64,000 nt of DNA from a virus, in IMG/VR virus record IMGVR_UViG_3300032286_000547, positions 1 through 64,000 of that record. One strand, given 5' to 3'. Below the pieces are notes generated by a model. It saw only the letters and a program-made list of their open reading frames with translations, was not told the DNA's origin and searched no databases. A program made the translations under genes and the position numbers. Position 1 is the first letter of the stretch, and each line of letters begins with the position of its first letter. Below are positions 2,310-62,260 of this stretch, piece after piece.

Positions 2310-3482
2310 ATGGCTGATTTTTCATTAACCACGGTATTCGTGGTTCCAGTAGGGCAAACTGCACTCCCTAGCTCTGGCTCAACACAAAACTTGACTGCAG
2401 GACAAGTTGGTTTCTTTAGAAACGATTATTCGGTAGCTACTGCTGCGAATATTGCTGCTGCTCCTTATTTTTACGTAGCACAAGGTAGAACAAACACTTA
2501 TTTACAAGGCTCTAAAAGATCTGACAAGATCAAAGGATGTCCTTCAGGATCTGGTTGTAACTCAAACGTAACAGAATGGTACAAAGTATCAGGATGTCCT
2601 ACAGCTGCAAACCAAATTACTGATGTAACTAATTTCACTGTACAATGTGGAGAAGTTATCACGTTAACTTTACGTGCTCACTCTTCTTATATTGATACAT
2701 TGTATTTTAATGGTTTCACTCGTTCGGTAACTATCCAAGCTCCATGTTGTAATTGTGATGACAACCCATGTGATGATGTAAGTGCTAACACTATCATCAA
2801 TGAGTTGATTTATCAATTAAACTTAAAAGCTCCAGGAAACAACCCTGACAACATTTCTTTCTCTACATTCTATACATTTGAAAATGTAGGTGGAACTACT
2901 TTACGTATTACAGGAAAACCATTAACTAAATATGGACAACCTTGTGATGTAGCTGCGTTCCCTTTTGAATATGACAGAATGTGGTTTAGAACATTTGTAT
3001 ACTCAGGTCCAGCTACTACTGCTGACTTTATCGTTGCAGATAACTGTAATCTTGTTGCTGATCCTATTATTAGACAACGTGCTTCTTATGCTACTGGTAC
3101 ATCTGCAGAAATTGCTCAATTAGAGAAAAATTTCTATAGCTACCAAGCTGGTTACTTGAAACATTTATATAGAATGAATGGATACAATGAGAACTTTGAG
3201 TCTTGGGTATCTGATGGTGTTACTTATGACACTTACTATATCAAATTCAACGAGTACAACAAATCTGAGTACCAATGGGGTGATTACATTATGGAAGACT
3301 CTACAGTGATTATCGCTGCTCCTAATGCTACAACAAGTGGTATTTCTGCTGCAATCACTACTGTATTAGAAGCTGGATTAGGTACTGTGGTAGATCAAGG
3401 TATTCCTTGTATTACAACTACATCTACTACAACTGGTGTCCCTGCATCTACAACAACTACTACTTCTACTCTTATCCCTTAA
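2310..3482 (+). CDS. crAss-like auxiliary capsid / major structural protein (gene-73-like) with C-terminal Thr-rich tail
   Basis: 390 aa with codon usage like the MCP fragment (TTC/AAC/ATC). GTSAEIAQLE...Y.A and YDTYYIKF motifs, C-terminal ITTTSTTTGVPASTTTTTSTLIP, and a long hairpin after the stop. Confidence 0.6.
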   Translation: MADFSLTTVFVVPVGQTALPSSGSTQNLTAGQVGFFRNDYSVATAANIAAAPYFYVAQGRTNTYLQGSKRSDKIKGCPSGSGCNSNVTEWYKVSGCPTAANQITDVTNFTVQCGEVITLTLRAHSSYIDTLYFNGFTRSVTIQAPCCNCDDNPCDDVSANTIINELIYQLNLKAPGNNPDNISFSTFYTFENVGGTTLRITGKPLTKYGQPCDVAAFPFEYDRMWFRTFVYSGPATTADFIVADNCNLVADPIIRQRASYATGTSAEIAQLEKNFYSYQAGYLKHLYRMNGYNENFESWVSDGVTYDTYYIKFNEYNKSEYQWGDYIMEDSTVIIAAPNATTSGISAAITTVLEAGLGTVVDQGIPCITTTSTTTGVPASTTTTTSTLIP

Positions 3483-3511
3483 GAATAAACAGTAGATAAA
3501 TATTAATAACC

Positions 3512-3561
3512 TATGCCAGGGGAAAGAGGATAAATCTCACATTCCTCTGGCATATTTATTT
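3512..3561 (+). terminator. Long hairpin with weak U-tail (partial terminator or stabiliser)
   Basis: TATGCCAG-GGGAA (3512-3524) pairs with TTCCT-CTGGCATA (3542-3554), followed by TTTATTT. Confidence 0.55.
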
Positions 3562-3570
3562 AAAAACAAC

Positions 3571-4134
3571 ATGGCAAACTTACAATTAGATATACTAGTA
3601 GTACCTACTTATGATGTTAATACTCTTGGTGTTGCAGATGCTTCTGTATATCCTACCAATCCTCCAGTGGTCTCAGCACCATCTATTGAGATTGAAATAC
3701 CAGGATTCGGAATCAAAATATTACCTTTTGTTCCTGACCAATTAAATGTATTTACATCTTCTAATTTGGGAATTACAGATCCTGGTTGTAATCAACCACT
3801 TCCTGATGGAATATACAGATTAAAATATTCTGTTGCTCCTGCATATGCAAACTATGTGGAGAAAACAATATTACGTGTTGATAGACTTCAAGAGAAGTTT
3901 GACAATGCGTTTTTACAATTAAATATGATGGAGTGTGATAGAGCACTTAAAACACAATCTAGTGTTATGTTAAATACAATTAACTTTTTTATTCAAGGAG
4001 CGATTGCAGCAGCTAACAATTGTGCAGAATATGAATCAAACACATTATATACTCAGGCAGATAATATGTTAGATAACTTTTTAAGAACCAACTGTGGTTG
4101 TTCAGGTAACAACTACTTAATAAACTTTTACTAA
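3571..4134 (+). CDS. Putative virion structural protein (tail hub/collar-like)
   Basis: 187 aa; beta-rich N-terminus with LPDGIYRLKYSV, helical C-terminus ending in CGC; inside the structural operon. Confidence 0.5.
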   Translation: MANLQLDILVVPTYDVNTLGVADASVYPTNPPVVSAPSIEIEIPGFGIKILPFVPDQLNVFTSSNLGITDPGCNQPLPDGIYRLKYSVAPAYANYVEKTILRVDRLQEKFDNAFLQLNMMECDRALKTQSSVMLNTINFFIQGAIAAANNCAEYESNTLYTQADNMLDNFLRTNCGCSGNNYLINFY

Positions 4135-4136
4135 TT

Positions 4137-4232
4137 ATGGCACAATGTAATTCATGCGGAGCTAAAGTGGGATGTGGATGTCAATTAACCAATGGGTTAT
4201 GTGCACACTGCGCATCTAAAATTGAAAAATAA
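4137..4232 (+). CDS. 31-aa Cys-rich peptide (not in ORF track): MAQCNSCGAKVGCGCQLTNGLCAHCASKIEK
   Basis: Fills the gap between two genes (2 nt after one stop, 11 nt before the next start); CxxC-x5-CGC-x6-CxxC. Confidence 0.7.
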   Translation: MAQCNSCGAKVGCGCQLTNGLCAHCASKIEK

Positions 4233-4243
4233 AAAACCTGATT

Positions 4244-5305
4244 ATGTTATCACCAAGACTAACAAATTGCCCAGAATGTGCTAACATTCCTTCTTTACTT
4301 AAAAAAATAGATTGCAAATTAGCAGAGCTTGGGAATAACTTGTACAACAATATTTCATATATGTTGAACAAACCTGTGCCTTCTAGTGACATACTTCAGC
4401 TGATAGGATATAGAAGAATACTTATGTATAAGTATTGTAATCCTAATTATGTGAATAAATACTCAGTAAATATGATTGCTAGTAGAGTGATACGTCTTAC
4501 ATTAGGATGTGTTAGTAGATGTAATGAACCAGAACGTTGTTTAGAGGAACCTTGTGATATTAAGATTGTATCAAATCCTACAACAACCAGTACAAGTACA
4601 CTTGCACCTATTACAACAACTACCAGTACAAGTTCAAGCAGTACTTCTACAACCAGTACTAGTACTACTGCAGTACCAACCACAACCACTACAAGTTCTA
4701 CTAGTACATCTACAACTAGTACAACTACAACAGTAGTACCAACTACTACAACTACTAGTTCTAGTTCTACAAGTACTTCTACAAGTACTTCTACATCAAC
4801 AACTACAAGCACTACAACTACTTTACCACCTACAACAACAACCACTAGTAGTAGTTCTTCAACATCTACAACCACTAGTACAACTAGTAGTTCTAGTTCA
4901 ACAACCACTACTACTACCACTGGAATTCCTTTCTACAATGTTCAAATACTTTTATCTCAAAAAGAAAATATAGGACAAAATGTAAAAATATGGTTTAGTT
5001 TTGGAGGAGCAAATTGGAATTTTTTTACAACAGGATCCCCTGGTACATACCCATTTTATAATTCATTTTCAGGATTATCATTTAGTTTAGGAACAAATAT
5101 ATTAATTGGATTAACAAATACTTCGGATACTGATATATCATATGGAGTTGGACAATCGTCAGGAGATTTTACATCTTTATGTGGACTTGTTTCACCATAT
5201 GTAATTAATAATATTTCAGCAAATACAACATTATATTTAAACTTAGATACAGATACTTCGGATTATATACCTTGTGCAACAACAACAACAACAACAACAG
5301 TTTAA
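4244..5305 (+). CDS. Putative structural protein with ~115-aa mucin-like Thr/Ser tract
   Basis: Helical Cys-containing N-domain, long T/S/P tract, beta-rich C-domain and terminal TTTTTTTV. Confidence 0.6.
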   Translation: MLSPRLTNCPECANIPSLLKKIDCKLAELGNNLYNNISYMLNKPVPSSDILQLIGYRRILMYKYCNPNYVNKYSVNMIASRVIRLTLGCVSRCNEPERCLEEPCDIKIVSNPTTTSTSTLAPITTTTSTSSSSTSTTSTSTTAVPTTTTTSSTSTSTTSTTTTVVPTTTTTSSSSTSTSTSTSTSTTTSTTTTLPPTTTTTSSSSSTSTTTSTTSSSSSTTTTTTTGIPFYNVQILLSQKENIGQNVKIWFSFGGANWNFFTTGSPGTYPFYNSFSGLSFSLGTNILIGLTNTSDTDISYGVGQSSGDFTSLCGLVSPYVINNISANTTLYLNLDTDTSDYIPCATTTTTTTV

Positions 5306-5325
5306 ACCTTTTAAAATAAAATAAT

Positions 5326-6426: not shown

Positions 6427-6438
6427 TAAATCATCAAG

Positions 6439-8745
6439 ATGGCATATCCTTTTTTACCAGTAAATCCTTGCTGTACAGACGTAGTTCTAAATACTCCTTG
6501 TGGATGTAGTTCTACAATTACCAATGGTGGTTGTAATAATAACGATCCATGTAGTACTCATTTAACTGCATCTAGCACTGTTGTTTATGATGGTCCTGCA
6601 CTACCATGTATAGTGGCTGAACCATGTGATACATTAAATGTAATCTTACAAAAGATAGATGAGATTATTTGTAATTTATTAACACAAATAAATTATTTAA
6701 ATAATCAAGTTACTAATATCACTAATCAAGTGATTACCATCAATGGTGATATAATTAATATATATAATATATTAGATGAGTGTTGTACTGCAACTACTAC
6801 CACTACATCTACAACAACATCAGCTCCTTGTGAAAGTTTCTCATTAGATAACACTGGAAATGAAGCAGTTGCTATCATTACTACTGATTGTACTACAGGA
6901 GAATTAGTTGCTACAGTCTTATTACCAGGAGTTACAAATATTTGTGTTGAAACAGATAGTCCTTTAACTGTTCCTGGAGATGTTATTGTTACACCAAATG
7001 GTCCTTGTGGTCCAACAACTACAACTACCACTACAACTATTCCTCCAAGCACCACAACCACTACAACAACTGTAGTATATGAATGTCAGTGTTTTACATT
7101 CTATAATGATGATGCTGTTACTCATGTGATAAATTATAAAGATTGTAATAATGTAAACGTTGGACCTTTGGATATTCTTCCACGTGAAACTATACAAGTT
7201 TGTGGAGGTTCTGGATCAGCTAGTGATCCTTTAGTTACAATTTCAGTAGGAGCTGATTGTATAGATGGGTCTTGTCCTACACCTAGTACAACTACCACCA
7301 CTACAACAATTGCTGAATGTACTTGTTATTATGCTGCTGTAACTATATCACAAGAATTATTAGATGTAACAGATAATGGTACAATTATAGTTAGTTTTAA
7401 TGATTGTGATGGAAATGCTCAATTAAATAATTATAGAAATGCAGGATCTTATTTATTAGGATGTGCAAACTTTATTCCAGGAATAGAAGTTACAGGATTA
7501 GTTGATGGAACAATAGTATTTCTTTCTGCTCCTTTTTCAATATATGAACAATGTTGTCCAGAATCTCCAACAACAAGTACTACTACTAGTACAAGTAGTA
7601 CAAGTAGTACAACAACTACTAGTTCTAGTTCAACAACAACCACAACCACAACTTGTCCTTGTACGAATCATGAACTAACAGGAGACTTAACAGGAGACAC
7701 TGAGTTTGTTTTTGTAGAATGTGGAAATACAGAATATACAAGTGTAACACTTGGAGGTTTTCCACAAGTGTATTGTATTGACAATAGTTATCGTGTTATT
7801 ATTATAGGAACTGGTGATGATTTTAATACAGGAGTTTGTTGTTCTATAACAACTACAACAACAACTACAGTTGTACCAACCACTACGACAACAACTACTA
7901 TTGCTCCTACAACAACTACTACCACAACAGTAAATCCAACAACTACAACTACAACAACATCTTATCCTTTTGATTGTTCATGTTTGAATGTTAATATATC
8001 TCAAACAGATTTAGATGATGCTACAGGAAACACTGGACCTGGTATACTTAATAATACAGTTTATTTAACAACTATAGAAGGTAGTGCATGTGATGGATCA
8101 GATGTAAATGCTGTTTACAGAGGTGTAACAACTGATGTTTTTTGTATTGACTTATCAGTAGCATTAGGAAATATAGAATTATTCTATTATAAAAATAATG
8201 TACCTGTATACTTCCCTAGTATAGATAGTACATACACTATTTTATATTCAGAATGTTTAGAAAGAGGTGACTGTGAAATAACAACTACGACCACCACTAC
8301 TATAGCACCAACCACTACTACCACTACTACAGTAGCACCTAGTACTACAACTACAACAACTGGTATACCTACAACAACAACTACAACAACTGCAGTTCCA
8401 ACAACTACAACAACTACTACAATATTTGATAGACGTTGTACATGTTTCCATGTTACTATAGATCAAGCAGATATAGATGATGCTACAGGTAATGCAGATC
8501 CTGTAAAGGATGGTAAATTGTACTTACAAACTTCTAAAGGTTCAGGTTGTGATGGTGCTCCTGATATATCTGCAGTATACACAACATTTGGTTCAGATGG
8601 TTTCTGTATAACAACATCACTTGTTAGTTCAATACAGTTATATTATTATAAAAATGATGTTCCAATTTACTATCCAGCTACAGCTAGTTCATACAATGTA
8701 TTGTATACTGCTTGTTCAGTGAATGGAGAATGTTTACCTGTATAA
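6439..8745 (+). CDS. Fibre-like protein: Cys-rich modules linked by poly-Thr tracts
   Basis: N-terminal VYDGPALPC module and coiled coil, repeated Cys modules separated by T6-T10 runs, and two ~100-aa repeats (ISQ.D.DDATGN...FCI...YYKN.VP). Confidence 0.65.
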   Translation: MAYPFLPVNPCCTDVVLNTPCGCSSTITNGGCNNNDPCSTHLTASSTVVYDGPALPCIVAEPCDTLNVILQKIDEIICNLLTQINYLNNQVTNITNQVITINGDIINIYNILDECCTATTTTTSTTTSAPCESFSLDNTGNEAVAIITTDCTTGELVATVLLPGVTNICVETDSPLTVPGDVIVTPNGPCGPTTTTTTTTIPPSTTTTTTTVVYECQCFTFYNDDAVTHVINYKDCNNVNVGPLDILPRETIQVCGGSGSASDPLVTISVGADCIDGSCPTPSTTTTTTTIAECTCYYAAVTISQELLDVTDNGTIIVSFNDCDGNAQLNNYRNAGSYLLGCANFIPGIEVTGLVDGTIVFLSAPFSIYEQCCPESPTTSTTTSTSSTSSTTTTSSSSTTTTTTTCPCTNHELTGDLTGDTEFVFVECGNTEYTSVTLGGFPQVYCIDNSYRVIIIGTGDDFNTGVCCSITTTTTTTVVPTTTTTTTIAPTTTTTTTVNPTTTTTTTSYPFDCSCLNVNISQTDLDDATGNTGPGILNNTVYLTTIEGSACDGSDVNAVYRGVTTDVFCIDLSVALGNIELFYYKNNVPVYFPSIDSTYTILYSECLERGDCEITTTTTTTIAPTTTTTTTVAPSTTTTTTGIPTTTTTTTAVPTTTTTTTIFDRRCTCFHVTIDQADIDDATGNADPVKDGKLYLQTSKGSGCDGAPDISAVYTTFGSDGFCITTSLVSSIQLYYYKNDVPIYYPATASSYNVLYTACSVNGECLPV

Positions 8746-8765: not shown

Positions 8766-9455
8766 ATGGCTAATTGCTCAAAAATAAATAATACAACAAT
8801 AATAGGAACGAGTGCTGTCACATATGATGGCACTCCACTTCCTTGTACAGATGTAAATACATGTGATGGGTTAAATACCATACTTGCTAAGTTTGATGCT
8901 ATTATATGTGATGTCAAATCTAATGTAGATACACTTACAGAAGAGATAATAGATATTACAGAGAATGTAATGCTTATTACAGAAGACATAATTAATATCC
9001 AAAATCAGTTAGAGATATGTTGTCCTAATTGTGATTTCACTGGAACTGCTGATCAACTATTAGATTGTACTTTTACTGGAACTGCTAGTCAACTTCCAGA
9101 TTCTACAACTACTACAACTAGTTCTAGTACATCTACTAGTACTTCCACTAGTACATCTACATCCACTAGTACAAGTACATCTACATCTACATCCACTACT
9201 ACTACTAGTTCAAGTAGTACAACAACTAGTACCACTACATTAGCTCCAGGAGATTTATGTTACAATGTTGAAATTTATCCTCCTATATTTAGTCCAGGTA
9301 CATTTCACGATGTAACATATACAGATTGTTTAGATATTGTTCAATCAGTAAGTGTTCCTGATGGTGGAAGTATGGTAACTATATGCTCAAAAGGAATTAT
9401 ATCAGATAATGGAAATGGTATAACTTTTCCTTTACTAACATTATGTACATCTTAA
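8766..9455 (+). CDS. Fibre-like protein with S/T tract; N-terminus paralogous to 6439
   Basis: VTYDGTPLPC..CDGLNTIL.K.D.IIC, coiled coil, (ST)n tract and one Cys module. Confidence 0.6.
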   Translation: MANCSKINNTTIIGTSAVTYDGTPLPCTDVNTCDGLNTILAKFDAIICDVKSNVDTLTEEIIDITENVMLITEDIINIQNQLEICCPNCDFTGTADQLLDCTFTGTASQLPDSTTTTTSSSTSTSTSTSTSTSTSTSTSTSTSTTTTSSSSTTTSTTTLAPGDLCYNVEIYPPIFSPGTFHDVTYTDCLDIVQSVSVPDGGSMVTICSKGIISDNGNGITFPLLTLCTS

Positions 9456-9491: not shown

Positions 9492-10589
9492 ATGATAGCA
9501 TTAATAACATTAGTTATACCACCTGGCGGAGATGCTGGTCCTTTTAATTTGTATTCAAATACAGATGGATATACAACACCATTTGCAACAAACATATCTG
9601 CAGCCGCTTTAACAGCTGGTTACACATCAACTGTTGTACCAAATGGAACAACTATAATTAGAGTGGTATCTACAGGAGTGTGTACAAATTATATTGATAT
9701 ACCAATCAATTTAATTACAACCACTACAACCACTAGTAGTTCTAGTACAAGTACAACAACTAGTACTACTACCACTGCTGTTCCTACTACCACTACTACA
9801 AGTAGTTCAACAAGTACATCTACTAGCACGAGTACATCTACATCTACAAGTACATCTACTTCTACATCAACTAGTACTACAACAGTTGCACCCACTACAA
9901 CCACTACTACTACAAGACTAATTGAATGTATAAGTTATTCAGCAACTATAAGTACTGGAATTGGAAATGTTAGTTGGACTGAATGTAATGGAGATCCTGG
10001 ATTTGGTGAAGTTACTGTAAGTGAACCTATTAGCTTCTGTGCACAAGAAGATACACCAATAAGTTCAACTCCAAATATTACTATAACCGATAATGGATCT
10101 TGTACAAGTCCTGAAGAAGGATGTTACACTATAACATTTAATCCTGATAGTGAATGTCCAGGTGATCCAGGTCATGTTACTGTATCATATACAGAATGTA
10201 ATGGAGATCAAGTTATAGGTGAAGTAATTAATACAGGAGCAGGTGCTACTAGATGTGCATTAGTTGGAGGTGCTGGTTTACAACCTGCATATGTTTGTGG
10301 AACAGGAACTATTTCACTTGGTGATCCATGTATACAATTAGGTCTTATTTCAGCATTTCCTGATCTAACTGATGCTTGTCCATTAGATATGTTAAATAAT
10401 TGTTGGATAAGTGGTATAGGAGAACCTAATGCAGGAGATGTTATATACACAGATGCTGCAATGACAACACCATTCTCAGGTGATGGAGACTTCTATCATT
10501 TTACTTTACAATCATCTACAATTACATATAGTGCTAGAGTTAATGCTTTTGGAGTAATTCAAGCTGCAGACTATACTATATGTCCTTAA
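9492..10589 (+). CDS. Putative virion decoration protein with mucin-like tract
   Basis: N-terminal GPFNLYSN module, ~65-aa T/S tract, two W/YTECNG modules. Confidence 0.6.
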   Translation: MIALITLVIPPGGDAGPFNLYSNTDGYTTPFATNISAAALTAGYTSTVVPNGTTIIRVVSTGVCTNYIDIPINLITTTTTTSSSSTSTTTSTTTTAVPTTTTTSSSTSTSTSTSTSTSTSTSTSTSTSTTTVAPTTTTTTTRLIECISYSATISTGIGNVSWTECNGDPGFGEVTVSEPISFCAQEDTPISSTPNITITDNGSCTSPEEGCYTITFNPDSECPGDPGHVTVSYTECNGDQVIGEVINTGAGATRCALVGGAGLQPAYVCGTGTISLGDPCIQLGLISAFPDLTDACPLDMLNNCWISGIGEPNAGDVIYTDAAMTTPFSGDGDFYHFTLQSSTITYSARVNAFGVIQAADYTICP

Positions 10590-10614: not shown

Positions 10615-11097
10615 ATGACAGTATTAATAACATTAACAGTTGCTGGGGCTGATTCAGGCCCCTTCAACCTGTATTCAAATATAGATGGATTTACATCAGC
10701 ATTTGAAACAGGAGTCTCTAAAGCTGCTTTATTAGCAGGATATTCTTCTGCATTAGTTCCTAATTTTACAACAGTGATTAGAGTGTTATCAACAGGAGAT
10801 TGTACTAACTATATAGACATAACATTAGATGCACCAATAACCACCACTACAAGTTCTAGTAGCAGTAGTACAACAACCACTACAACTGGAATTCCTTGTA
10901 TCTCATATGAGATGATAGGTGTTTTGGATGGTCCTGGATGTGTAGGATTTGTAAACTACTCATACACTGATTGTTCAGGAGTTTTCCAACTAGGAAGTTT
11001 CTCAGTTTCTAGTTCAGAAACTGTATGTGGACAAAGTCTTCCTACAATAACTTGTGGATCTGCAACAATAAATAACTTAGGCACATGCCTTCCATAA
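10615..11097 (+). CDS. Short paralog of 9492 (GPFNLYSN module, T/S linker, one Cys module)
   Basis: N-terminal ~70 aa align with 9492 (GPFNLYSN.DG.T..F.T..S.AAL.AGY.S..VPN.TT.IRV.STG.CTNYIDI). Confidence 0.65.
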   Translation: MTVLITLTVAGADSGPFNLYSNIDGFTSAFETGVSKAALLAGYSSALVPNFTTVIRVLSTGDCTNYIDITLDAPITTTTSSSSSSTTTTTTGIPCISYEMIGVLDGPGCVGFVNYSYTDCSGVFQLGSFSVSSSETVCGQSLPTITCGSATINNLGTCLP

Positions 11098-14689: not shown

Positions 14690-17600
14690 ATGGCTGAAGA
14701 AAAACAACAAGGAAACATAAGACAAGAGTACAATAATGCTACTGTAGGACTGAATATGGATCAATCTGTTAATCAGATTAAGCCAGGTACTCTTACATAT
14801 GCATTAAATGCTGCCTTGGAAAACTTTGATGCTAGTTCTGTTAACTATCAGAATGAGCAAGGTAATGAGTTTTGTGTAAGTTTCCCACAAGGATTTACAT
14901 TAATAGGTAATCATTTTATTGCAGAGCAAAGTAAACATATATTCTTTATAACTAATCCTAATACAGGAGATTGTCAGATTGGATATATGGACAACAATGA
15001 TTGTATCTACCGTATATTAGTAAATGGTAGATGCCTTAACTTTAATATAAATAATCCAATACAAAAAACAGTACATAAGATTACAAACTGTACAACAGAA
15101 ATATATTGGACAGATGGATTAAATCCAAGAAGATATTTAGATATTAATAATGTTCCTTATATATTATCACCTCAATCAGAATTGTGTGACCCTGTATACA
15201 CAGATCAATTAGATTGTAATCAATTAAAGATACAACCTAATTTCAGTATTCCATTTTTAAATGTTGTAGATGTAATTAGTGGCGGTGAACTAAAAGCAGG
15301 AACTGTACAGTTTGCTATACAATATTGTGATGCTGCAGGTAATGCATTCACATCATATTATTCTGTTACCAATCCTACACCTATTGCTGATCCATTTATC
15401 ACTACAGTTAATTATGATTACACTGTGGGTAAATCAGTTGTAGTTGATATTACAGGATTAGATACTACAGGACAATATCAATATTATAACTTAGCAGTGA
15501 TTACCACTGTAAATGCTATCACTTCTGTAGAATTAGTTGGTACATATTTTATTGAAAATTCATACGATCAAGTTACATACACTGGTCAAAACGTAGATAA
15601 CATTCGTTTAGTTATTGCAGACATATTTGAAAAATATCCTTACTATGATATTGCACAAGACTTAACAGCTGTACAAGATGTTCTTGTATGGGATAATCTT
15701 ACATCTATAGACAGACTTAACTATCAATCTATTGCTACTAAAATAAAACTTAATTGGCAAACATATAGAATACCAAATAATGAAAACTATGCTGATGAAT
15801 TAAATGCTACAAACTTACGTGGATATTTACGTGATGAGGTGTATGCATTTGAAATTGTATTCTTATTAAAGAATGGAAAGCAAACAGATGGTTTTCACAT
15901 CCCTGGAAGAGAAATAGGTTATAATGATTTACAATATCCAAATGTACTAGATACGGATCCAGATTTTATTGGAGAACCAGAACCAGGTACAAACTATAGT
16001 CCTTATTGGAAGATATATAATACAGCCACTGTAATAGGACCTGCAACAGGAGATCCTATTGGTAATGCTACACCATATCAATATGGTGAAATGGCTTATT
16101 GGGAATCTACAGAAGAGTATCCTTGTAATGAAGATTTGTGGGGTGAACTTGCTGGTAAACGTATTAGACATCATAAGTTTCCAGATGTTCTTGTAAGTCC
16201 TATATTTGAGAATCCTGTATATGTATATTCAGGAAATCAAGTGGTTCCTGTAATGCAAAATAATGCAGTGTATCCAATTGGTGTAAGAGTAGATGTTGGA
16301 CAAATTAGTACATTGATTGCACAATCATCATTAACTGCAGAACAAAAGGATGATATTGTTGCATTCAAAATAGTTAGAGGAGATAGAGGAACAAACAAAT
16401 CTATTGTAGCTAAAGGGATACTTCGTAACGTTGGATCTTATGAAAGACAAAATCAAACTCTTTATTATCCAAACTATCCATACAATGACCTTAATTCAGA
16501 TCCTTTCTTAAATTCATTTAACAATGCATTCAATCAAATATCTAGTCCATGGTTAGTAATAAACAGTAGTGGTACTGATGTTACAGTTGAATATAAAGAT
16601 CCTAACACAAATCAAACTGGAACAAGAACAGTACCTCCTAACACAACGATTGAGTTTTGTTCAACAAGTAGACCTACAGTAAGAGAAGGTGTAGCTACAG
16701 TTGGTCCTGGAAACTTTGATTCATTTTTCTTAAGTGGTTGTCATGGAACTAAAGGATATCGTGCATTCTGGGCTACTCCATTTACTTCTGATAATACTGT
16801 TCTAAATCAACAAGAGGAGTATATGGACTCTAATAGTAATATATTTGGAGGTGGTTGTAGTACAGGTAGAGCTATTGTAAATGTTGGTGGAAGTGTAGGT
16901 GATGATTGTGATAACCCTTGGTGGAATCCATTTAAGTGTGATCCACGTGCTGATATTGAAGATATTGAATATCAAGACATTGGTGTTGTAAATTTTAATA
17001 AGAGTAGAAGATCTAAACTTAACTGTAAAGGACAAACACCAGTTCCTGCATTTACAGGTGGAACATTAAACTATAGACAAATATTTAATTCTCCTGAAAC
17101 ATCATTTGGACAACCATTCTTAGGTAATGTATTAAAACTTGAGAATGTAATGTTTGGTGCTGGTAGAGCGCATTTTGTTCCAGTGGAAAGTAATGCTAAA
17201 TATAAACTTCTTACAAAAGAAGCTCAATATGATGCATTAGAATCATCAGAAAGACTTGGTGCTATTACAAGTCCATTTAATGCTGGAGCAATGTTTGCTG
17301 CTTACCAATCATATTTAACTATTTATGTAAATGGTATTACTAGAAAGAACTATGCATACTCATTCAATTCAATAGCTAGCTATGACTACTTTGGAAACAT
17401 AGATAATAGTCTTGGTATCAAACAAAGAACAATTGATTTTGCTCGTTATTTAATTCCAGGTGTTCAATCTGTTGGAGAACCAGGTGGTATAAATGTAAAC
17501 AACTTTGAAAGAGAAAGTTCTGTATATATCAAAACTATAGAAGAAAGAGATGTTGCTATCCCTGTTACACCTTTAGAATTTCCTAGCAAGACACCAAGTC

Positions 17601-51599: not shown

Positions 51600-53564
51600 A
51601 TGGCACTAAAGTATTGGTATGTAGCAGGTAATGGAAGTTCAAACTTCAATACAGCAGGGGTGTGGTATAATGGACCTGGAGGCACAGGTGGCACTACAAC
51701 TACGCCTACTGCTGCTGATGATGCTATTGTTAATGCTGCTTCAGGTAGTGGTACATTAACTATTACAGCTACTGCAACTATTAATAGTTTAAATACTAAG
51801 ACTTTTACAGGGACATTAGCTGGAACAAACGCACTAAATATAACAACTACAACTTTACCAAGTGATAATTATGTACTTCAATTAGGAGGAAATCATACAT
51901 ATAGTGGTACTATAACTTTTAATACTACACTTGATCTTGGTTCATATACTTTATATATAAATTGTAATGGTATATTCCATAAAGGAAATATGACATTTAA
52001 TTCTACAACAGTAAATGCTGAATGGTATAGTTATGATGATATTAATAGTAATCTTGTACCATTAAGAATGACAGGTGCTTTTGGATTAACAAAAGGATAT
52101 GTTGATTGCAATGAATTATATGCAGCAAGTATTTCTACATCTAATTCAAATTTTAGAGGAATTTATGTAGATGATATTTATTTATCAGGATCAGGAACAT
52201 TATTAGTTGCAACAACTCAAACAGGATTAAGTTGGAATTTAACTAATTCAATTCATCTTACAAATACAACAGCAACTGCTAAAGCAATTTCATTTTCAGG
52301 AGTTGCTTATGCTCCAAATTTATATATAGAAGGTTCAGGAGCAAGTTCTACAACTATAACTGTTGCAGTTGCAACAGATGATTATCCAAATGTAATAGTA
52401 TCAAAAACACAGGGAACATTTCTTTTTGGTACAAGTTATATAAGAGACCTTACATTTATAGAAGGATCTACAGTTACTTGGGCAGGAACATCAAATTTAA
52501 CAGTTCATGGGAATGTTACTTTGTGTAATTCTATGTCTATAACAACAAGTAATGCTTTAATATTTCAAGGACCTAATTTAGGTGTTGATAATCAAACTTT
52601 AACTACTTTTGGAAAAACATTTACAGGAACTTTATCTATTAATGATACAGGTTATAATTCTTTAAATCTTACTATAAATGGAAATTATTTAACTACAGGA
52701 ACTATAACTATAACTGCAGCAAATATAGTAACTTTTAATAATTCTATATCATCAAGTAATTCAATAAGTATAAATGGTTCTTCAACAGGTGCATTTCCAA
52801 CTGTTGATTTTAATGGTGGAATATTAACAGCTACAACTTTGTCTATAACAGATGCATTTGTTTATTTAAATAACAGCTTTTTATCAGGTGGATTATCTTT
52901 ATCTACAGGTTCATTACAGCTTCTTACTAATTCTGTACATAGTTTTTTCACATTTACATCATCTTCATCTACTAATGTTAGGTCAATTTTCTTAGGTAAT
53001 AATACAACTATAAATATAAGAGGAAATGTTGCAAATAGTTGGAATACTTCTCAAGGTTTAGCACAAGGTGTTTTACTTTTTAATGCAGGAACATCAACAA
53101 TAAATATAATAGATAATACATCAAGTGCAGCTGTTAGTTTTCAAACAGGAGGAGTTAGTTTTTATAATATTCATTTAAATAGGTCAAATAATTCAATAAA
53201 TCCTCCTCAAATTACTTTTACAGGAGGTTTGTATTGTGTAAATTTTAGAGACTTTACTGTAATGCCCGCAGGAGTTTTTAATTATATTGTTTTTGGTGGT
53301 GGAACTCCTATAGTTTTTTCTGATACATTTCAAGTTGGTAATGACATTAATCCAACTTATATACTCTCGTCAAGTACAACTCCTGTTACTATAACTAAAC
53401 TTAATCCAGGATTAGTTATATGTCCAAGATTATCACTTTATAATATAAATGCTTCTCAAACAAATACTTTTTATGCAATAAAAGGTTCTACTGATAATGG
53501 TGGGAATAATCAATGGATATTTAACACACCACCAAGAAGATTAAGTTCTCTTGGTGCAGGATAA
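51600..53564 (+). CDS. Beta-helix adhesin / tail spike-like protein
   Basis: YWYVAGNG..F...W...GG....PTAADDAI...SG start followed by T/S/N/G-rich beta-solenoid-like repeats. Confidence 0.6.
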   Translation: MALKYWYVAGNGSSNFNTAGVWYNGPGGTGGTTTTPTAADDAIVNAASGSGTLTITATATINSLNTKTFTGTLAGTNALNITTTTLPSDNYVLQLGGNHTYSGTITFNTTLDLGSYTLYINCNGIFHKGNMTFNSTTVNAEWYSYDDINSNLVPLRMTGAFGLTKGYVDCNELYAASISTSNSNFRGIYVDDIYLSGSGTLLVATTQTGLSWNLTNSIHLTNTTATAKAISFSGVAYAPNLYIEGSGASSTTITVAVATDDYPNVIVSKTQGTFLFGTSYIRDLTFIEGSTVTWAGTSNLTVHGNVTLCNSMSITTSNALIFQGPNLGVDNQTLTTFGKTFTGTLSINDTGYNSLNLTINGNYLTTGTITITAANIVTFNNSISSSNSISINGSSTGAFPTVDFNGGILTATTLSITDAFVYLNNSFLSGGLSLSTGSLQLLTNSVHSFFTFTSSSSTNVRSIFLGNNTTINIRGNVANSWNTSQGLAQGVLLFNAGTSTINIIDNTSSAAVSFQTGGVSFYNIHLNRSNNSINPPQITFTGGLYCVNFRDFTVMPAGVFNYIVFGGGTPIVFSDTFQVGNDINPTYILSSSTTPVTITKLNPGLVICPRLSLYNINASQTNTFYAIKGSTDNGGNNQWIFNTPPRRLSSLGAG

Positions 53565-53568: not shown

Positions 53569-53600
53569 AAAAAAGAAGCTCCTAACTAAGGAGCTTTTTT
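53569..53600. terminator. Bidirectional rho-independent terminator between convergent genes
   Basis: A-run, AAGCTCCT-AACTA-AGGAGCTT (53576-53596), then T-run; overlaps the 3' end of the minus-strand gene. Confidence 0.85.
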
Positions 53601-56548
53601 ATTTCATCTATCACCATCTCTGGTGTTATGCTCTTCTGACATTCAAACTGTCTCTCTGTTCCTTTATGAACAGGACACCAGTCCCAATCTCCTTTATCAA
53701 ATTTATACTGTGGATCATTCCAACAACCGTGGCATACTCGGTTGTTTGTCACTCTATGGCATTTAAATTCGTGATCTGCATCAGTGAAGTTAGCAATCAT
53801 TATCACTGGCACATCTAGTGCCCATGCTAACCAACTAAGCCCACTAGATAGTCCTATAAAGAATCTACTATTGTATATAACACTCATGGTTGCTGACATA
53901 CTTTTATCAGACAATGGTTGACAGTTATCAAATGGATTATCTTCTAGTGATGTATTGATAACTTTGTATCCTTCTCCATGTAAGTAGTTAATCACTTCTT
54001 GCCATGCTTCTCTGGTCCAGAACTTACATCCTGCTGTACTATTAGTAGCTATAGCAACTTGTCTCATTGCAAGATGCACTCTGCTGTTTACAATCCTTGG
54101 TTTGATTTCTTTATAAGGAAGACCTAGAATGTTTGTAGCTGTCTGCTGTAATGGTATAGTGTTTGGAAGAACAGGTTCTTTGTTTTCATTATAGAACCAA
54201 CCAATCTTATACATTGCATAGATGTTATTCACTGTAGCACCTGGCTCAACAAACTCTAGCATTGGATATTCTTTTTCAAACAAGAAGTTCTTGAATGTAC
54301 TAACAATCACTTCACAGTTGTGTGCACATCTAAACTCTTCTACGTATGGTATCCAAGCTATTGTATCTCCTAAAGAAGAACTATCGAATGCAATATAAAC
54401 TCTTCTACCATCTAGATTTAAAAGTTTATCATACACCTTCTCTCCATCTTTATACACCACAGTCTTCCACTGTGTATAATACTCTCTGTTTAGTCTTATC
54501 CAGTGATTACATTTGATTGTGTCACTATGAACCAACACATCACCATCATAAAACTCTACACGAAAGTCACTAGTAGATGTTCCTGTTATCTCCAAGAATG
54601 GTTGTCCAACGAAGTGTTGTGTTATATTCCAATCATTTACACTGTTTTTGTGTGGAATAACGGACATTGCTTTCTTATATAGATTCAAATTATTCTTAGC
54701 AAAGAATATAGATGGATTATCAAGTGGCATAGGATAATTGTTAGGAGATGTTAACATATCTCTTATCTGTGGTACTATCATAATAGGGTTTAGGTTTCTT
54801 ATATAATCAGTGAACATGTCATAATATTGAATAAGGTTTCTAGCTAGTATAGGTTTGCCATAACTAATGGCTTCTCTAAGAACAAGAGGATTACATTCCC
54901 ATGTAGAGTTAAACATAAACAAGTCTGCAGCTTTCATAAATAAATCTGTATCATTTCTCTCTCCCCATACAGTAACATTATCAGGAACATTGTTCATTAA
55001 TGGTTCCCAATAGTCTTTGAAGTTCCCAGCTTGGTTACCTACAAAGTGAAACTCTACATCTGGTATCTGTCTAGCTGCTTCTAATCCTTCTCCCTGGTTC
55101 TTTCCTCTGGTCCAAAGTCCTATGTTTACAACATGTTTCTTTGTTACATCCATTCCAAGAGTTATTTGTGCAGCAGTTTGTTCAGCTTTACTTACATGAG
55201 TATAATCTATAGGATATTCAATCACTTCTTTATATCCATCAAGGTTAGCAAATGTATCTACATGATAAGGTGTACAGAATGCATATGCATCTGGTGTAAA
55301 CATCTTAGTCTCTGGTACAAAAGAAACATCATGACATGTCTCAACTATTCTATATGTTCTATCATCAGCATACAGTCTAGTGATCATCTCTCTATCCATT
55401 CTCTCAGACATTTCATCTATATGAATGATGTCTGGTCTGAATTCATTTATGATGCAAAATAGTTCTGTTTTATCCTCATATAATGTGAATACAGGTACAA
55501 TATCTAAGATTTGGTTCCTTTGTACAACAAAATCCACACTATAACATTGATATTCCACTACAATTATTTCTACATCTGTATAATCTTTCAATGTTTGTAT
55601 TCTTTTTAGAAGAAACTGAGGCATACCACCTGTTGACAGATGGGGAGCAAGGAACATTATTTTAATAGGTTTAGACATTTTAGACATTAGTTTAGACATT
55701 GCTACAGGATCTTTTTCTCCATGTAAGAAGAATAATTGATCCTCACTAGCTGGTAACTTAAACCATGATTCTAAATAACTTCCCCAGTTATCTTCATTAT
55801 ATATTCTATCAAACTTATCAAGGCTAGCATTAGTGTATATATAAGGAAGACTATCTAAGAACTTATGTTTCCATAACAACACATTCACTATTGTCTCTTC
55901 GTGATAGGGAGCATAGTATTGTGGATCTTTTAGTATCTTTGGATGATTGCACATCCAACTCCACTCATTTAAGAATGGTATAGTGTTCTGACCAGCTACA
56001 AAATAACCAGTTTGTCTATACTTGTCTCTAATAGATTGATCTACATTAAACAATTCACATGCTGGAGCTTCAAGACTCTTGTGTAAGTTCTCTCTTCCAA
56101 TTACAACACCTCTACCATTCATTAATAGATAATCATATATACCTTCTGTGAAATACGGAAACTCAGAATCTGTAGGATAGTAGTTGAATATTCTATCTAC
56201 ATACTTAGTTGCTACACTGTCAGAATCTACATAACAGATTGTCTCAGCAAATCTTTCAAGAGCATCTTTAACTATAAGAGGTCTTTGTATTAATAGATTG
56301 TATATTCTAGAATCATCTCTATCTATATAAGATGATTTTGGTACATCTTCTACATCACATTTCCAGTAGACAGTGTTAGCTCCAGGAACCTCACTATAAT
56401 CATTTAACATGTACACTGTAATTGGTACATCACTAAACTGTTGAATACTTTCTACAGCCATACATACAGTGCTGTAATAAGATGCATTTGCATATAAAAC
56501 ATACATTCTATCTGCTTTTCTATTTGTGTGTGTAAAACTAGAAGACAT
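53582..56548 (-). CDS. Three-domain glycosyltransferase: GT-A (DxD) + GT4-like GT-B + autotransporter O-heptosyltransferase (TibC/AAH)-like domain
   Basis: YVDSDS and HEETIVN; KIMFLAPHLSTGGMP...KNQG...STWECNPLVLREAISYG; SSSLGDTIAW...FIGLSSGLSWLAW...CHGCWND...WCPVHKGTERQFEC. Confidence 0.88.
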   Translation of the reverse strand: MSSSFTHTNRKADRMYVLYANASYYSTVCMAVESIQQFSDVPITVYMLNDYSEVPGANTVYWKCDVEDVPKSSYIDRDDSRIYNLLIQRPLIVKDALERFAETICYVDSDSVATKYVDRIFNYYPTDSEFPYFTEGIYDYLLMNGRGVVIGRENLHKSLEAPACELFNVDQSIRDKYRQTGYFVAGQNTIPFLNEWSWMCNHPKILKDPQYYAPYHEETIVNVLLWKHKFLDSLPYIYTNASLDKFDRIYNEDNWGSYLESWFKLPASEDQLFFLHGEKDPVAMSKLMSKMSKPIKIMFLAPHLSTGGMPQFLLKRIQTLKDYTDVEIIVVEYQCYSVDFVVQRNQILDIVPVFTLYEDKTELFCIINEFRPDIIHIDEMSERMDREMITRLYADDRTYRIVETCHDVSFVPETKMFTPDAYAFCTPYHVDTFANLDGYKEVIEYPIDYTHVSKAEQTAAQITLGMDVTKKHVVNIGLWTRGKNQGEGLEAARQIPDVEFHFVGNQAGNFKDYWEPLMNNVPDNVTVWGERNDTDLFMKAADLFMFNSTWECNPLVLREAISYGKPILARNLIQYYDMFTDYIRNLNPIMIVPQIRDMLTSPNNYPMPLDNPSIFFAKNNLNLYKKAMSVIPHKNSVNDWNITQHFVGQPFLEITGTSTSDFRVEFYDGDVLVHSDTIKCNHWIRLNREYYTQWKTVVYKDGEKVYDKLLNLDGRRVYIAFDSSSLGDTIAWIPYVEEFRCAHNCEVIVSTFKNFLFEKEYPMLEFVEPGATVNNIYAMYKIGWFYNENKEPVLPNTIPLQQTATNILGLPYKEIKPRIVNSRVHLAMRQVAIATNSTAGCKFWTREAWQEVINYLHGEGYKVINTSLEDNPFDNCQPLSDKSMSATMSVIYNSRFFIGLSSGLSWLAWALDVPVIMIANFTDADHEFKCHRVTNNRVCHGCWNDPQYKFDKGDWDWCPVHKGTERQFECQKSITPEMVIDEIKKLLS

Positions 56549-58410: not shown

Positions 58411-58411
58411 C

Positions 58412-58612: not shown

Positions 58613-58635
58613 TATAATAAATAAAATTTAAAGAA

Positions 58636-59649: not shown

Positions 59650-59659
59650 TAAATAAAAC

Positions 59660-60442
59660 ATGGCAATACCTAGTAGACAAATAGGATGGAGTGGAAGAGC
59701 TAACTTACTTTGGCAGATATCTAAACAATTAGAATATCTAACATGTGTAGCAGCTGGTGGATGTACAACTACTACATCTACTACCACTATTGCTCCTACC
59801 ACCACCACAACAACTACAATTTGTGTAGACTTTATTAATAGTATTGTTATTTCTGGTGGTTCATACACTGCTGCTAATGGAACTTATACAAGAGATACTC
59901 CTTCAGGATCTTTTACATTAACAGGTGGAGGTGGTGCTATATTCTTTGGTGGAGATGCTTGGTATATTTTTAATGCTACAATTGGAAATGTTGCAATAAA
60001 TACATCTACACTAGGAACTGGAACATGGGAACCTTTTGCTCCTGGAAATTCATCAGGAATTACTGCAGAGTATTTTTATTATACTTGTCCAACCACTACA
60101 ACCACAACTAGTAGTAGTTCTTCAACAACTTCTACTACTAGCACTACTACAACTGTAGCTCCAACTACTACTACAACAACTACAGTTATATATTCATTTA
60201 ATGTTACGCAATGTTGTGGAGGAACTGGTATTACAGTATATTCAGCTTCACCATCAATAACAGTAGGTGCATATTTATATACAAACTCAGGACTAACTGT
60301 TCCGTTTGTTAATGAACAAGGTGACGGTGCTCCTAACAGAATTGGTTTTGAGAATACTTGTGATGTTTCTTTTAGTGACGCATTTTTTACATATAATACA
60401 GGATACGTTTATACCATTAATGGTGGCGGTGGTTGCGACTAA
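59660..60442 (+). CDS. Putative decoration protein with MAIPSRQIGW module and two Thr tracts
   Basis: Paralogous N-terminus; T-rich linkers between small beta domains. Confidence 0.6.
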   Translation: MAIPSRQIGWSGRANLLWQISKQLEYLTCVAAGGCTTTTSTTTIAPTTTTTTTICVDFINSIVISGGSYTAANGTYTRDTPSGSFTLTGGGGAIFFGGDAWYIFNATIGNVAINTSTLGTGTWEPFAPGNSSGITAEYFYYTCPTTTTTTSSSSSTTSTTSTTTTVAPTTTTTTTVIYSFNVTQCCGGTGITVYSASPSITVGAYLYTNSGLTVPFVNEQGDGAPNRIGFENTCDVSFSDAFFTYNTGYVYTINGGGGCD

Positions 60443-60484
60443 TAACAAACAAAAAATAAATAATTATATTAAACCAACTACATT

Positions 60485-61501
60485 ATGAAAGATTTAAAAT
60501 TTGTACAAGCTTGCCCAAGCGATATTTATTATACATGGCAAGTGAACCTTTGGATGGAAAGCCTAAAAGAAATAGGACACTCTGACAAAGCAATCAATCT
60601 TATATTCACTCCTAAAGGAAGAGAGAATAGAGACAAATGGAAACAAATAGAAGACCTATATCCAGAAGCTGAGTTTCATTACTACGAGGATGAGGATGAT
60701 TTAAATCGATTAATTGGAATCTATATTCCTGTACTTAGACCATATGTTCTTTGGAAACATTTCAAGAAGCATCCAGAGCTAAGTGATAAAGCAATCTTCT
60801 ATTGTGACTCTGACATTCTATTCATGAAAGATTTCAATGTAGATCAGTTCTTAGAAGATGAAGTGTGTTACTTATCAGATACAAATAGCTACATCAATGC
60901 TAAATATTTTGATAGTAAGGTGAATCAAGTGTTACCAGAGAAACTGGAAGAATATAAAGGTAGAGACATCCTTGCAGAGATTGCAAGTGTTGTAGGAATA
61001 AGCAGAGAAATAGCTGAGGCTAACAATGATCATTCAGGAGGAGCACAATATCTATTAAAGAATGTAGATGGTGACTTCTGGAGTAAGGTGATGAATGATT
61101 GTATTCTTATTAGAACCTATTTACAAACAGTGAATAGAGAATTCTTTAAAGATGAAAATGCTGGATACCAAAGTTGGTGTGCTGATATGTGGGCTGTTCT
61201 TTGGAACCTATGGTTTAGAAACCAAGAAACAAAGGTGGTACCTGAAATGGCATTTGCATGGGCTACAGATCCTATATCAAAGCTTGATACACATACAATC
61301 TTTCATAATGCAGGAATAGTTTCTGAAACAGGAAATGGTTACCCAGCCTTTTACAAAGGCAAATATCACATGGGTACTGATCCAACAAAAGATCCTAACC
61401 TAGATATGATTCTTAATGACGAACAATCAAAAAAATATTGTACTTGGTTCTATGCAACTAAACTGAATGAAATTAAAAACAAATATAACCTAAACTATTA
61501 A
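60485..61501 (+). CDS. GT-A glycosyltransferase resembling HPAT/SERGT (GT95/GT96) peptide O-glycosyltransferases
   Basis: YYTWQ...ESL, Y.P.LRPY.L..HF, YCDSDILF (DxD), GGAQYL, W.KV..D, WCADMWA and IFH in the same order as in that family. Confidence 0.7.
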   Translation: MKDLKFVQACPSDIYYTWQVNLWMESLKEIGHSDKAINLIFTPKGRENRDKWKQIEDLYPEAEFHYYEDEDDLNRLIGIYIPVLRPYVLWKHFKKHPELSDKAIFYCDSDILFMKDFNVDQFLEDEVCYLSDTNSYINAKYFDSKVNQVLPEKLEEYKGRDILAEIASVVGISREIAEANNDHSGGAQYLLKNVDGDFWSKVMNDCILIRTYLQTVNREFFKDENAGYQSWCADMWAVLWNLWFRNQETKVVPEMAFAWATDPISKLDTHTIFHNAGIVSETGNGYPAFYKGKYHMGTDPTKDPNLDMILNDEQSKKYCTWFYATKLNEIKNKYNLNY

Positions 61502-61517
61502 CCATAAATTTTAAACA

Positions 61518-61781
61518 ATGGGAAGCATTAATACAAGACCTTTAAAGGCTTATGTTAGATTCGATGGATCTGGCAGAATAGTTGCAGGAAGTTTAGTTCT
61601 GAGAAAGAACAAACCTAAAGTTGGTAAATGGAAAGAGATTCCAGCATATGAGTGCTGTAATCCTACAACCACTACTACCACTACAGCTGCACCAACAACA
61701 ACAACAAGTACAACTGTAGCTCCAACTACCACAACCACAACAACTGCGAGAGCAACAACAACAACTACAACAACAAGATAA
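61518..61781 (+). CDS. Small protein: VRFDGSGRIV module plus pure poly-Thr tail
   Basis: 87 aa, of which the last ~38 are almost only Thr with A/P/V spacers. Confidence 0.65.
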   Translation: MGSINTRPLKAYVRFDGSGRIVAGSLVLRKNKPKVGKWKEIPAYECCNPTTTTTTTAAPTTTTSTTVAPTTTTTTTARATTTTTTTR

Positions 61782-61783
61782 TC

Positions 61784-62260
61784 ATGGCTAGAAGTAATAA
61801 CAATAATAAGCTTAAAGCTTTTGTACGTTTTGATGGTTCAGGACGTATTGTACCAAGTAGTTTAATTGTACAAGCATTTAAACCGAAGGTAGGTAACTAT
61901 CAAGAAATAGATGCTAAAGAGTGTTGTAATTACACAACAACTACAACAACAACTTTAGCACCAACAACAACCACTAGTACTACGGTAGCCCCTACTACAA
62001 CTACAACTACTACTGTAGCTTTAATTCCACTTACTTTTACAGTTTGTTGTGGAGAAGCTGAAGAAACTTTATATGCAACATCAAGTCCAGTAGTGCCTGG
62101 TGTTTATTTATATGAAAACGCGGCTGGTACAATTCCTGCTGTTTTAAGCGGAAATGTTGTGATCGGTGAAATCGATTGTCCTTTTGAAGAAAATATAGGA
62201 ATATCTACAAATGAATCTGGATTAGTTTTGAGTATTACAAACCCTATTAACTGTGCTTAA
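61784..62260 (+). CDS. Paralog of 61518 with Thr tract and extra C-terminal domain
   Basis: LKAFVRFDGSGRIV..SL....KPKVG...EI.A.ECCN; C-domain similar to the end of 59660 (CCG.....Y..S....G.YLY.N). Confidence 0.65.
   Translation: MARSNNNNKLKAFVRFDGSGRIVPSSLIVQAFKPKVGNYQEIDAKECCNYTTTTTTTLAPTTTTSTTVAPTTTTTTTVALIPLTFTVCCGEAEETLYATSSPVVPGVYLYENAAGTIPAVLSGNVVIGEIDCPFEENIGISTNESGLVLSITNPINCA

Follow-up and report, generated by a model that had tools for sequence, protein, structure and literature searches.

To our knowledge, glycosylated phage particles have been documented so far only in a few mycobacteriophages, whose glycans make them harder for antibodies to recognize; this virion glycosylation, in Che8, Corndog and Myrna, was reportedly described by Freeman et al. 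in 2023 (PMID 37329881). As cited in passages of PMC12363180 and PMC12619734, these three phages encode glycosyltransferases (GTs) that act in the cytoplasm and glycosylate their own capsid and tail-tube subunits C-terminally. Here we analyze the first 64 kb (positions 1 to 64,000, the window) of IMG/VR virus record IMGVR_UViG_3300032286_000547, a 110,147-bp record with direct terminal repeats and a completeness of 100%. Our subject is a pair of GT genes, 60485 and the gene of a 988-amino-acid (aa) enzyme, and a set of open reading frames (ORFs, named by position) whose products carry Thr/Ser tracts or Gly-Thr-Ser repeats. We think it likely that virion proteins of this phage receive sugars from phage-encoded enzymes in the host cytoplasm, in two enzyme/acceptor pairs that draw on host nucleotide sugars. 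Because such enzymes and tracts travel together across phages, phages far beyond the mycobacteriophages probably sugar-coat their particles, with enzymes not earlier described for this role. The enzymes of both pairs and the acceptor proposed for the second are the following.

60485 to 61501, plus strand: 338-aa GT-A glycosyltransferase, matching phrog_4417 at 5e-55; proposed poly-Thr/Ser-directed protein O-glycosyltransferase
55679 to 56548, minus strand: domain 1 of the 988-aa enzyme (aa 1 to about 290), predicted GT-A fold bearing the DxD motif YVDSD
54803 to 55519, minus strand: domain 2 (aa 344 to 582), GT4-type GT-B; matches to Glycos_transf_1 (1e-10), Glyco_trans_1_4 (4e-9) and phrog_2170
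53591 to 54562, minus strand: domain 3 (aa 663 to 986), TibC/Aah-type protein O-heptosyltransferase (BAHT) domain; match to TIGR04414
48392 to 50929, plus strand: 845-aa collagen-like tail fibre with (Gly-Thr-Ser)n triplets; matches to Pfam Collagen and to tail-fibre PHROGs

The system proposed here departs from mycobacteriophage glycosylation in the families of its enzymes, in how its acceptors are built, and in the phage groups and hosts involved. Neither 60485 nor the 988-aa enzyme has detectable similarity to Che8 gp108-110 in blastp and profile searches (E > 0.06), and the Che8 capsid and tail-tube proteins bear no poly-Thr tail. The acceptors of the present phage would instead be a collagen-like fibre and tracts as long as 122 aa, and the hosts are not Actinobacteria. 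There is also a likeness, in that the poly-Thr tags of Gram-positive carriers of the 60485 family are likewise found at the C-termini of capsid and tail-tube proteins. Full-text searches of the literature returned nothing on a link between phage particles and phrog_4417, poly-Thr tails or TibC-like domains, which does not prove that no such report exists.

Several cellular systems offer further points of comparison. BclA of the Bacillus anthracis exosporium, the SRRP adhesins with GtfA/B, and the SdgA/B systems involve repetitive Thr/Ser-rich or collagen-like G-X-Thr filaments on which dedicated GTs of the cytoplasm, encoded adjacent to the acceptor, place a dense cover of O-linked sugars. These are, however, cellular surface proteins served by other enzyme families, and the sole hint of kinship is a weak SdgA match (E 0.005). 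Glycogenin is a GT8 enzyme that glucosylates a protein hydroxyl; 60485 is like it in its predicted GT-A fold and has a DxD motif with a His further downstream. Plant HPAT (GT95, PF23452) acts on hydroxyproline in the Golgi; an initial annotation of this DNA had placed 60485 with HPAT/SERGT, a label that finds no confirmation, since Pfam HPAT matches neither 60485 nor 62 of its relatives at E ≤ 0.01. TibC and Aah (BAHT) are cytoplasmic protein O-glycosyltransferases of autotransporters (PMC4358343). Domain 3 of the 988-aa enzyme would, like TibC, act in the cytoplasm to hyperglycosylate a protein of hydroxyl-rich repeats. It differs from these enzymes in that it is encoded by a phage, sits behind two further GT domains, has a Thr aligned with Arg286 in a gapped stretch and leaves TibC residues 1-60, the start of the beta-barrel, unmatched. 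Moreover, the TibC/Aah acceptor is the beta-helix passenger of an autotransporter, whereas the repeat protein that co-occurs with the phage domain is a (GTS)n collagen-like fibre.

Results

Co-occurrence of the 60485 family and poly-Thr tracts

A tblastn search of 50,697 phage records located the 60485 family in 77, nearly all of them phages of Gram-positive bacteria with no relationship to the present phage; one is the Chryseobacterium phage MA9V-3. Carriers in which the gene lies beside poly-Thr genes infect Enterococcus, Lactococcus, Lacticaseibacillus, Staphylococcus, Arcanobacterium and Chryseobacterium, and in the siphoviruses the homologue is one of the structural-module genes and comes immediately behind that of the major tail protein. 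The homologue is gp51 in phiFL1A and orf14 in Lactococcus phage 1706. Enterococcus phage phiFL1A has poly-Thr C-terminal tails on both its capsid protein gp45 and its tail protein gp50, and Lactococcus phage 1706 likewise has poly-Thr at the end of its capsid protein and of its "major structural" protein. Two or three ORFs of the structural module carry poly-Thr in Staphylococcus phage DH5 and in Arcanobacterium phage TPWB06, one of those in TPWB06 being the annotated major tail protein; Enterococcus phage nattely has it in a single such ORF, and MA9V-3 in both structural-module ORFs upstream of the homologue. As a separate observation, the two proteins of phage 1706 (L089, 4468-6528 and 7238-7975) share an identical odd ending, T9-10 followed by HHD.

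The tails come and go with the gene on homologous proteins. The homologues of the phiFL1A tail and capsid proteins in phiJL-1, ATCC8014, cIP1, three Streptococcus prophages and SPP1, all of which are free of the gene, have no poly-Thr tail. Lacticaseibacillus phage R3.3, which belongs to the genus of phiJL-1, ATCC8014 and cIP1, has the gene and has tails on both its capsid and its tail proteins. Across whole genomes, runs of seven Thr are absent from all 11 phages that lack the gene, including four crAss-like or related phages, and present in six of eight unrelated carriers and in 25 of the 27 genomes of the clade to which the present phage belongs; the samples in the comparisons of this study are small and partly related. 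The initial annotation had proposed such a co-occurrence check, and across phages its outcome is positive. The search was also run in reverse: among 38 searchable viral contigs chosen solely by a pattern of ten Thr codons, five encode the 60485 family, against a background of 77 in the 50,697 phage records, and four further contigs of the same scan have the GT gene immediately downstream of the tract ORF.

Co-occurrence of the TibC-like gene and Gly-Thr-Ser repeats

The (GTS)n tracts that had been remarked in 48392 prove to be a collagen repeat. The protein matches Collagen (PF01391) at 3.8e-38 with 129.5 bits, above the gathering score and over nine stretches, and its 97 G-X-Y triplets, mostly Gly-Thr-Ser, have Thr at X in 72 and Ser at Y in 68.

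A TibC-like domain is encoded in 15 of the 27 complete or near-complete clade genomes. All 15 have between 3 and 23 Pfam-collagen matches, and all 12 genomes that lack the domain have 0 to 2. The repeats themselves also differ. Genomes with the domain have GTS-type triplets in which Thr and Ser make up a fraction of 0.47-0.81 of the X and Y positions, whereas the few collagen-like proteins of the others are of the GPQ/GIQ type, with a T/S fraction of 0.15 or less. Thus the second co-occurrence that had been proposed, of TibC-like gene and GTS repeats, also turns out positive, with GTS-type arrays in 15/15 versus 0/12 genomes. Mapped onto a tree of the 60485 homologues, the TibC-like gene must have been gained or lost at least five times. 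In the clearest sister contrasts the number of collagen matches shifts along with the gene, for instance between G000 (with the gene, six collagen matches) and G001 (without it, none), and between G025 (nine matches) and G022-G024 (none). The collagen genes lie from a few kb to about 15 kb from the gene of the TibC-like enzyme.

Two other dependencies were considered and rejected. Poly-Thr content does not depend on the TibC-like gene: G001, which lacks it, has the most tracts in the clade, with 26 seven-Thr runs in 12 ORFs. The second candidate concerns a neighbour of the enzyme gene. At 51600-53564 lies the gene of a 654-aa protein, 27% of it T/S and without a Pfam or PHROG match, which converges on the 988-aa GT gene. 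No homologue of 51600 was found in 26 related complete genomes, and it is therefore a strain-specific fibre or spike; being unique to one genome, and so showing no co-occurrence, it was rejected as a conserved TibC acceptor.

The glycosyltransferases

The two GT genes and four GT domains recognized in the initial annotation are confirmed by profiles and folds, with one domain in 60485 and three in the 988-aa protein. Sequence searches of Pfam, NCBIfam and PDB assign 60485 to no family, and its PHROG match, phrog_4417, is listed as of unknown function. In an alignment of 63 diverse sequences of the family, D108, D110, H274 and K291 are invariant, a DxD...His signature. The AlphaFold model of 60485 (predicted local distance difference test score, pLDDT, 96.9) finds as its best solved structures in Foldseek glycogenin (3e-7), XXYLT1, WbbM and UGGT; against glycogenin, the TM-scores are 0.47 and 0.61 at 13% identity. 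Because of these matches of the predicted fold, together with the invariant DxD and downstream His, we conclude that 60485 is, by its model, a GT-A fold, GT8-like (glycogenin-like) enzyme. Longer relatives have this domain fused to GT2, GT6, DXD-sugar or methyltransferase domains.

With respect to HPAT, a search of the genome with PF23452 at E ≤ 10 gave nothing, and the control genomes likewise gave nothing. The protein-level Pfam test on 60485 and its 62 relatives is the firmer negative because the genome search missed its controls too. By language-model similarity, clusters with Pfam HPAT in 10% and 58% of their members rank among the neighbours of 60485, which we treat as a lead only.

Domain 1 of the 988-aa enzyme has no family match by sequence. 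Its AF2 model (mean pLDDT 83.8) gives GTA/GTB (blood-group GT6) and UGGT as the top Foldseek matches, at 2e-7, and its D108 and D110 are invariant among relatives. In NCBIfam the GT4 domain has weak matches to lipid and teichoic-acid enzymes and, far under the cut-off, to SdgA. Domain 3 scores 258.3 bits against TIGR04414 (cut-off 200), which bears out the initial TibC/Aah assignment, and 2e-52 against the sequence of the TibC structure, PDB 4rap. In TibC the key residues are Asp110, the ADP-heptose-binding Arg286, Trp305, Thr226 and Lys230, and the iron-finger Cys339/342/358/370 (PMC4358343). Domain 3 retains Asp110 (the catalytic base), Thr226, Lys230, Trp305 and all four Cys, and the alignment with TibC places LGD, C-H-G-C, W-C-P and F-E-C at the positions named in that study. 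The TIGR04414/TibC match begins at TibC residue 61 (model position 30), with the GT4 domain upstream; the N-terminal beta-barrel of TibC comprises residues 1-97, and TibC assembles into a dodecameric ring.

Relatives of the 988-aa enzyme (P0275-P0390) mostly have an extra domain: an N-terminal methyltransferase of about 160 aa (PF13489/PF08241), FkbM (PF05050), GT25 (PF01755) or PF04488. The domain content suggests methylated or longer glycans and a modular evolution of the enzyme. TibC-like domains with 35-44% identity are also found in Microcystis phage Mel-JY01 (PP395634.1, 7360-8403), where the gene is annotated as an FkbM methyltransferase, and in the uncultured huge phages LR756501/LR756504, of 636-735 kb.

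Thr/Ser tracts and the proteins that bear them

Tracts were detected by a sliding-window count of T/S(P), with a stricter rule of at least 9 T/S per 12 residues. All ten tract ORFs reported initially are borne out, with measured tract lengths of 21 to 122 aa:

2310 to 3482, plus strand: 390-aa virion-module protein with a 21-aa C-terminal T/S tail (aa 368-388)
4244 to 5305, plus strand: 353-aa protein in which a 122-aa T/S(P) tract (aa 110-231) separates two domains
6439 to 8745, plus strand: 768-aa Cys-rich appendage protein with six T-rich tracts (21-51 aa), T7-(V/I/A)x-P units between small domains
8766 to 9455, plus strand: 229-aa protein with a 58-aa (TS)n tract and an N-terminal anchor like that of 6439 and 5326
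9492 to 10589, plus strand: 365-aa protein with a 73-aa T/S tract behind an N-terminal domain in common with 10615
10615 to 11097, plus strand: 160-aa paralogue of 9492 with a 28-aa T/S tract
14690 to 20782, plus strand: 2030-aa virion structural protein (phrog_37948, 6.9e-110) with three T/S-P tracts of 21-26 aa near the C-terminus
59660 to 60442, plus strand: 260-aa fibre-like protein with T-rich tracts of 22 and 39 aa, immediately upstream of GT-A gene 60485
61518 to 61781, plus strand: 87-aa protein, a conserved N-terminal anchor followed by a bare 37-aa poly-Thr tail
61784 to 62260, plus strand: 158-aa paralogue of 61518 with anchor, 31-aa poly-Thr stalk and C-terminal head domain

Long tracts had been said to be missing from the RNAP, cargo, lysis and enzyme genes, and their absence extends to the whole 110,147-bp genome: under the stricter rule, none of the roughly 110 other ORFs, including the entire replication half, has a tract except 48392. 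The Thr codons of the tracts are mixed, as had also been noted (ACA 161, ACT 141, ACC 42, ACG 7), and the longest run of a single codon is 7. Runs of seven Thr codons number 23 on the coding strand and 0 on the opposite strand, compared with 2 and 2 for a reversed control pattern. Given the mixed codons and the confinement of the runs to the coding strand, the tracts are not simple arrays of DNA slippage.

Tracts are built of blocks of about seven Thr spaced by VAP, AVP, IAP, VVP or IPP and lie between recognizable domains, several of the proteins being laid out as N-terminal anchor, stalk and variable head. N-terminal anchor segments are held in common by 58636 and 59660, by 61518 and 61784, by 9492 and 10615, and by 5326, 6439 and 8766. 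Homologues of 61518 are present in 75 of 80 related loci. In G022 (L179:4844-5581), G024 (L180:9495-10235) and G023 (L181:7359-7772), the 61518/61784 anchor (…FVRYDGSGRVVAGSL…ECC) is fused directly to the head; because anchor and head join here without it, the poly-Thr stalk is an optional module. G022 and G024 are among the relatives poorest in tracts, and their homologues of 2310 retain the C-terminal T/S tail, as their homologues of 14690 retain a 37-aa tract.

The description of these proteins as structural is upheld by PHROG for 14690; for 6439 the PHROG match is weak, and the other tract ORFs are so placed by gene position only. The more specific roles in capsid, collar and muzzle found no support. 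For 2310, PHROGs, PDB, tblastn and PF25650 were all negative for a capsid or auxiliary capsid protein, and an Atlas lead of 0.86 to the auxiliary capsid protein of crAss001 is a lead only and does not establish its identity.

Most of the T-rich tracts (6439-8745, 8766-9455, 59660-60442 and 61518-62260) are flanked by cysteines, as in CC...T-tract...C, and ECC directly precedes the stalk of 61518 and 61784. The heads of the tract proteins are Cys-rich, which is odd for assembly in a reducing cytoplasm.

Discussion

We propose that both pairs would act in the cytoplasm before or during virion assembly and would draw on nucleotide sugars of the host. In the first, 60485 would add sugar to the hydroxyls of poly-Thr/Ser tracts, which would serve about ten proteins of the appendages and the capsid module as stalks, linkers or C-terminal tails. 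In the second, the TibC/Aah-like domain of the 988-aa enzyme would start O-glycosylation of the (Gly-Thr-Ser)n fibre 48392, the fused GT-A and GT4 domains would extend the glycan, and in relatives the added methyltransferase domain may modify it. Possible benefits of such a coat are protease resistance, stiff extended stalks, or masking. The tracts, the enzyme folds with their catalytic residues and the co-occurrence of each enzyme with its proposed acceptor across phages are what the data show, whereas the attachment of sugar, its identity, the order in which the domains act and the purpose of the coat are what we infer. The core idea of the initial annotation, protein-directed phage GTs that act on Thr/Ser-tract virion proteins, gains from both comparative tests, shorn of HPAT membership and of the capsid, collar and muzzle roles.

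Several findings weigh against this proposal, and some of them are what one would expect if the tracts were plain unglycosylated linkers and tails and the GTs acted on host envelope polysaccharide or lipid, on phage DNA or on a small molecule; with an envelope target, they would serve superinfection exclusion or receptor masking. Secreted and fibre proteins of the low-GC Bacteroidota type often have linkers of this kind. The glycan on the virion proteins is predicted from genes and co-occurrence. All 27 clade genomes have a 60485 homologue, including G022 and G024, which have almost no poly-Thr (no seven-Thr run and three mixed T/S tracts each); a strict all-or-none link between gene and poly-Thr thus fails for these two, and within the clade the presence of the gene does not track the amount of tract. 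Because every clade genome has the homologue, no test of presence and absence is possible there. Lactobacillus myovirus SAC12B carries the gene in a genome free of seven-Thr runs, and 33 of the 38 viral contigs chosen by ten Thr codons, many of them fragments, show no 60485-family gene. NTP_transferase, Epimerase and SIS_2 (SIS-type isomerase) genes for nucleotide sugars were not found in the phage genome, and TibC Arg286, a donor-binding residue, corresponds to a Thr in a gapped stretch of domain 3, which raises the possibility of a donor other than ADP-heptose. GT4 and GT-A domains are generic, the weak GT4 matches in NCBIfam being lipid and teichoic-acid enzymes, and phage GTs mostly modify DNA or O-antigen (PMC12619734). 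We nevertheless hold plain linkers to be unlikely. In unrelated siphoviruses the 60485 family lies within structural modules, right behind a tail-tube or tract gene, and the tails of homologous capsid and tail proteins come and go with it; the characterized members of the domain 3 family, TibC and Aah, are cytoplasmic protein O-glycosyltransferases; and the type of collagen repeat switches according to the TibC-like gene.

It is also conceivable, though quite improbable in our judgment, that the virion proteins are glycosylated with a different pairing: the TibC-like enzyme would also or instead serve the poly-Thr stalks, or 60485 would only extend a glycan started by the host, and the link between TibC-like and collagen genes would reflect the hitch-hiking of a cassette. 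The two genes are close in every genome, so that recombination would move both; they could be swapped as one cassette without an enzyme-substrate tie, and because they are neighbours, linkage could account for part of their association, which likewise counts against our proposal. TibC is known to modify Ser residues of beta-helix repeats rather than collagen (PMC4358343), and the T/S-rich 51600 is an alternative acceptor candidate. Yet poly-Thr is independent of the TibC-like gene, as the tract-rich G001 illustrates, and 51600 is without a homologue in 26 of 26 relatives. The repeats, moreover, change in chemistry from GTS to GPQ and not just in number, which hitch-hiking alone does not predict, and in Gram-positive phages the 60485 family is the sole phage GT beside the tails.

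Our proposal of two enzyme/acceptor pairs can be widened into a joint reading, for which we see about even chances: a portable enzyme/tag pair of phrog_4417 and poly-Thr, a TibC domain retargeted from autotransporter beta-helices to collagen-like (Gly-Thr-Ser)n phage fibres, and a mucin-like, methylated coat. Under this reading the pair would be used by phages of Bacillota, Actinomycetota and Bacteroidota-type hosts on capsids, tail tubes and fibres, a poly-Thr tail alone would suffice to mark a virion protein for glycosylation, and the coat would be common in abundant freshwater and marine crAss-like phages.

If these proposals are true, virion glycosylation would be widespread and would include dairy, enterococcal and staphylococcal phages that are used or feared in practice, as well as a very abundant environmental crAss-like clade. 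It could be read from genomes by a simple rule, a poly-Thr tail plus one GT-A gene, and a PHROG family of "unknown" function would be assigned one. The pair would be a candidate genetically encoded glycosylation tag for the engineering of phage surfaces, and the TibC/Aah enzyme family would have its first setting outside autotransporters. There would also be a bearing on phage stability, adsorption and immunogenicity and on the mass-spectrometric annotation of virion proteins.

Genome context

The terminase and portal of the phage match phrog_6681 and phrog_6547, and the portal is 24-27% identical to Crassvirales portals across about 95% of its length; the lowest portal E-value belongs to Leptolyngbya phage Lbo-JY46, rather than to Crassvirales. 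The plus strand of the window holds a long virion module with ORFs of 2030, 1569, 940, 4273 and 1669 aa. Because of the portal and terminase matches and a genome of about 100 kb with giant virion-module ORFs, the phage can fairly be called a distant crAss-like relative; the initial designation as crAss-like holds at that level. The clade has 485 portal matches in IMG/VR, and the close homologues of one gene fall into 2,713 protein clusters in metagenomes, which makes the clade very abundant in the environment.

Four of the giant ORFs (1569, 940, 4273 and 1669 aa) lie in a row at 22427-47914 with zero PHROG matches and are presumably a crAss-like cargo or virion-RNA-polymerase block; a megablast search of phage records with the 12.8-kb giant ORF gave no match. 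At 62280-62693 is a homologue of phrog_858 (7e-14), annotated as "starvation-inducible transcriptional regulator"; in 69 of 80 related loci it is conserved immediately 3' of the block of GT and poly-Thr genes. The G000 genome also contains, at 77096-81145 (L082:13096-17145, minus strand), RIIA-like and RIIB-like lysis-inhibition genes that match phrog_612 at 1e-59 and phrog_609 at 9e-13.

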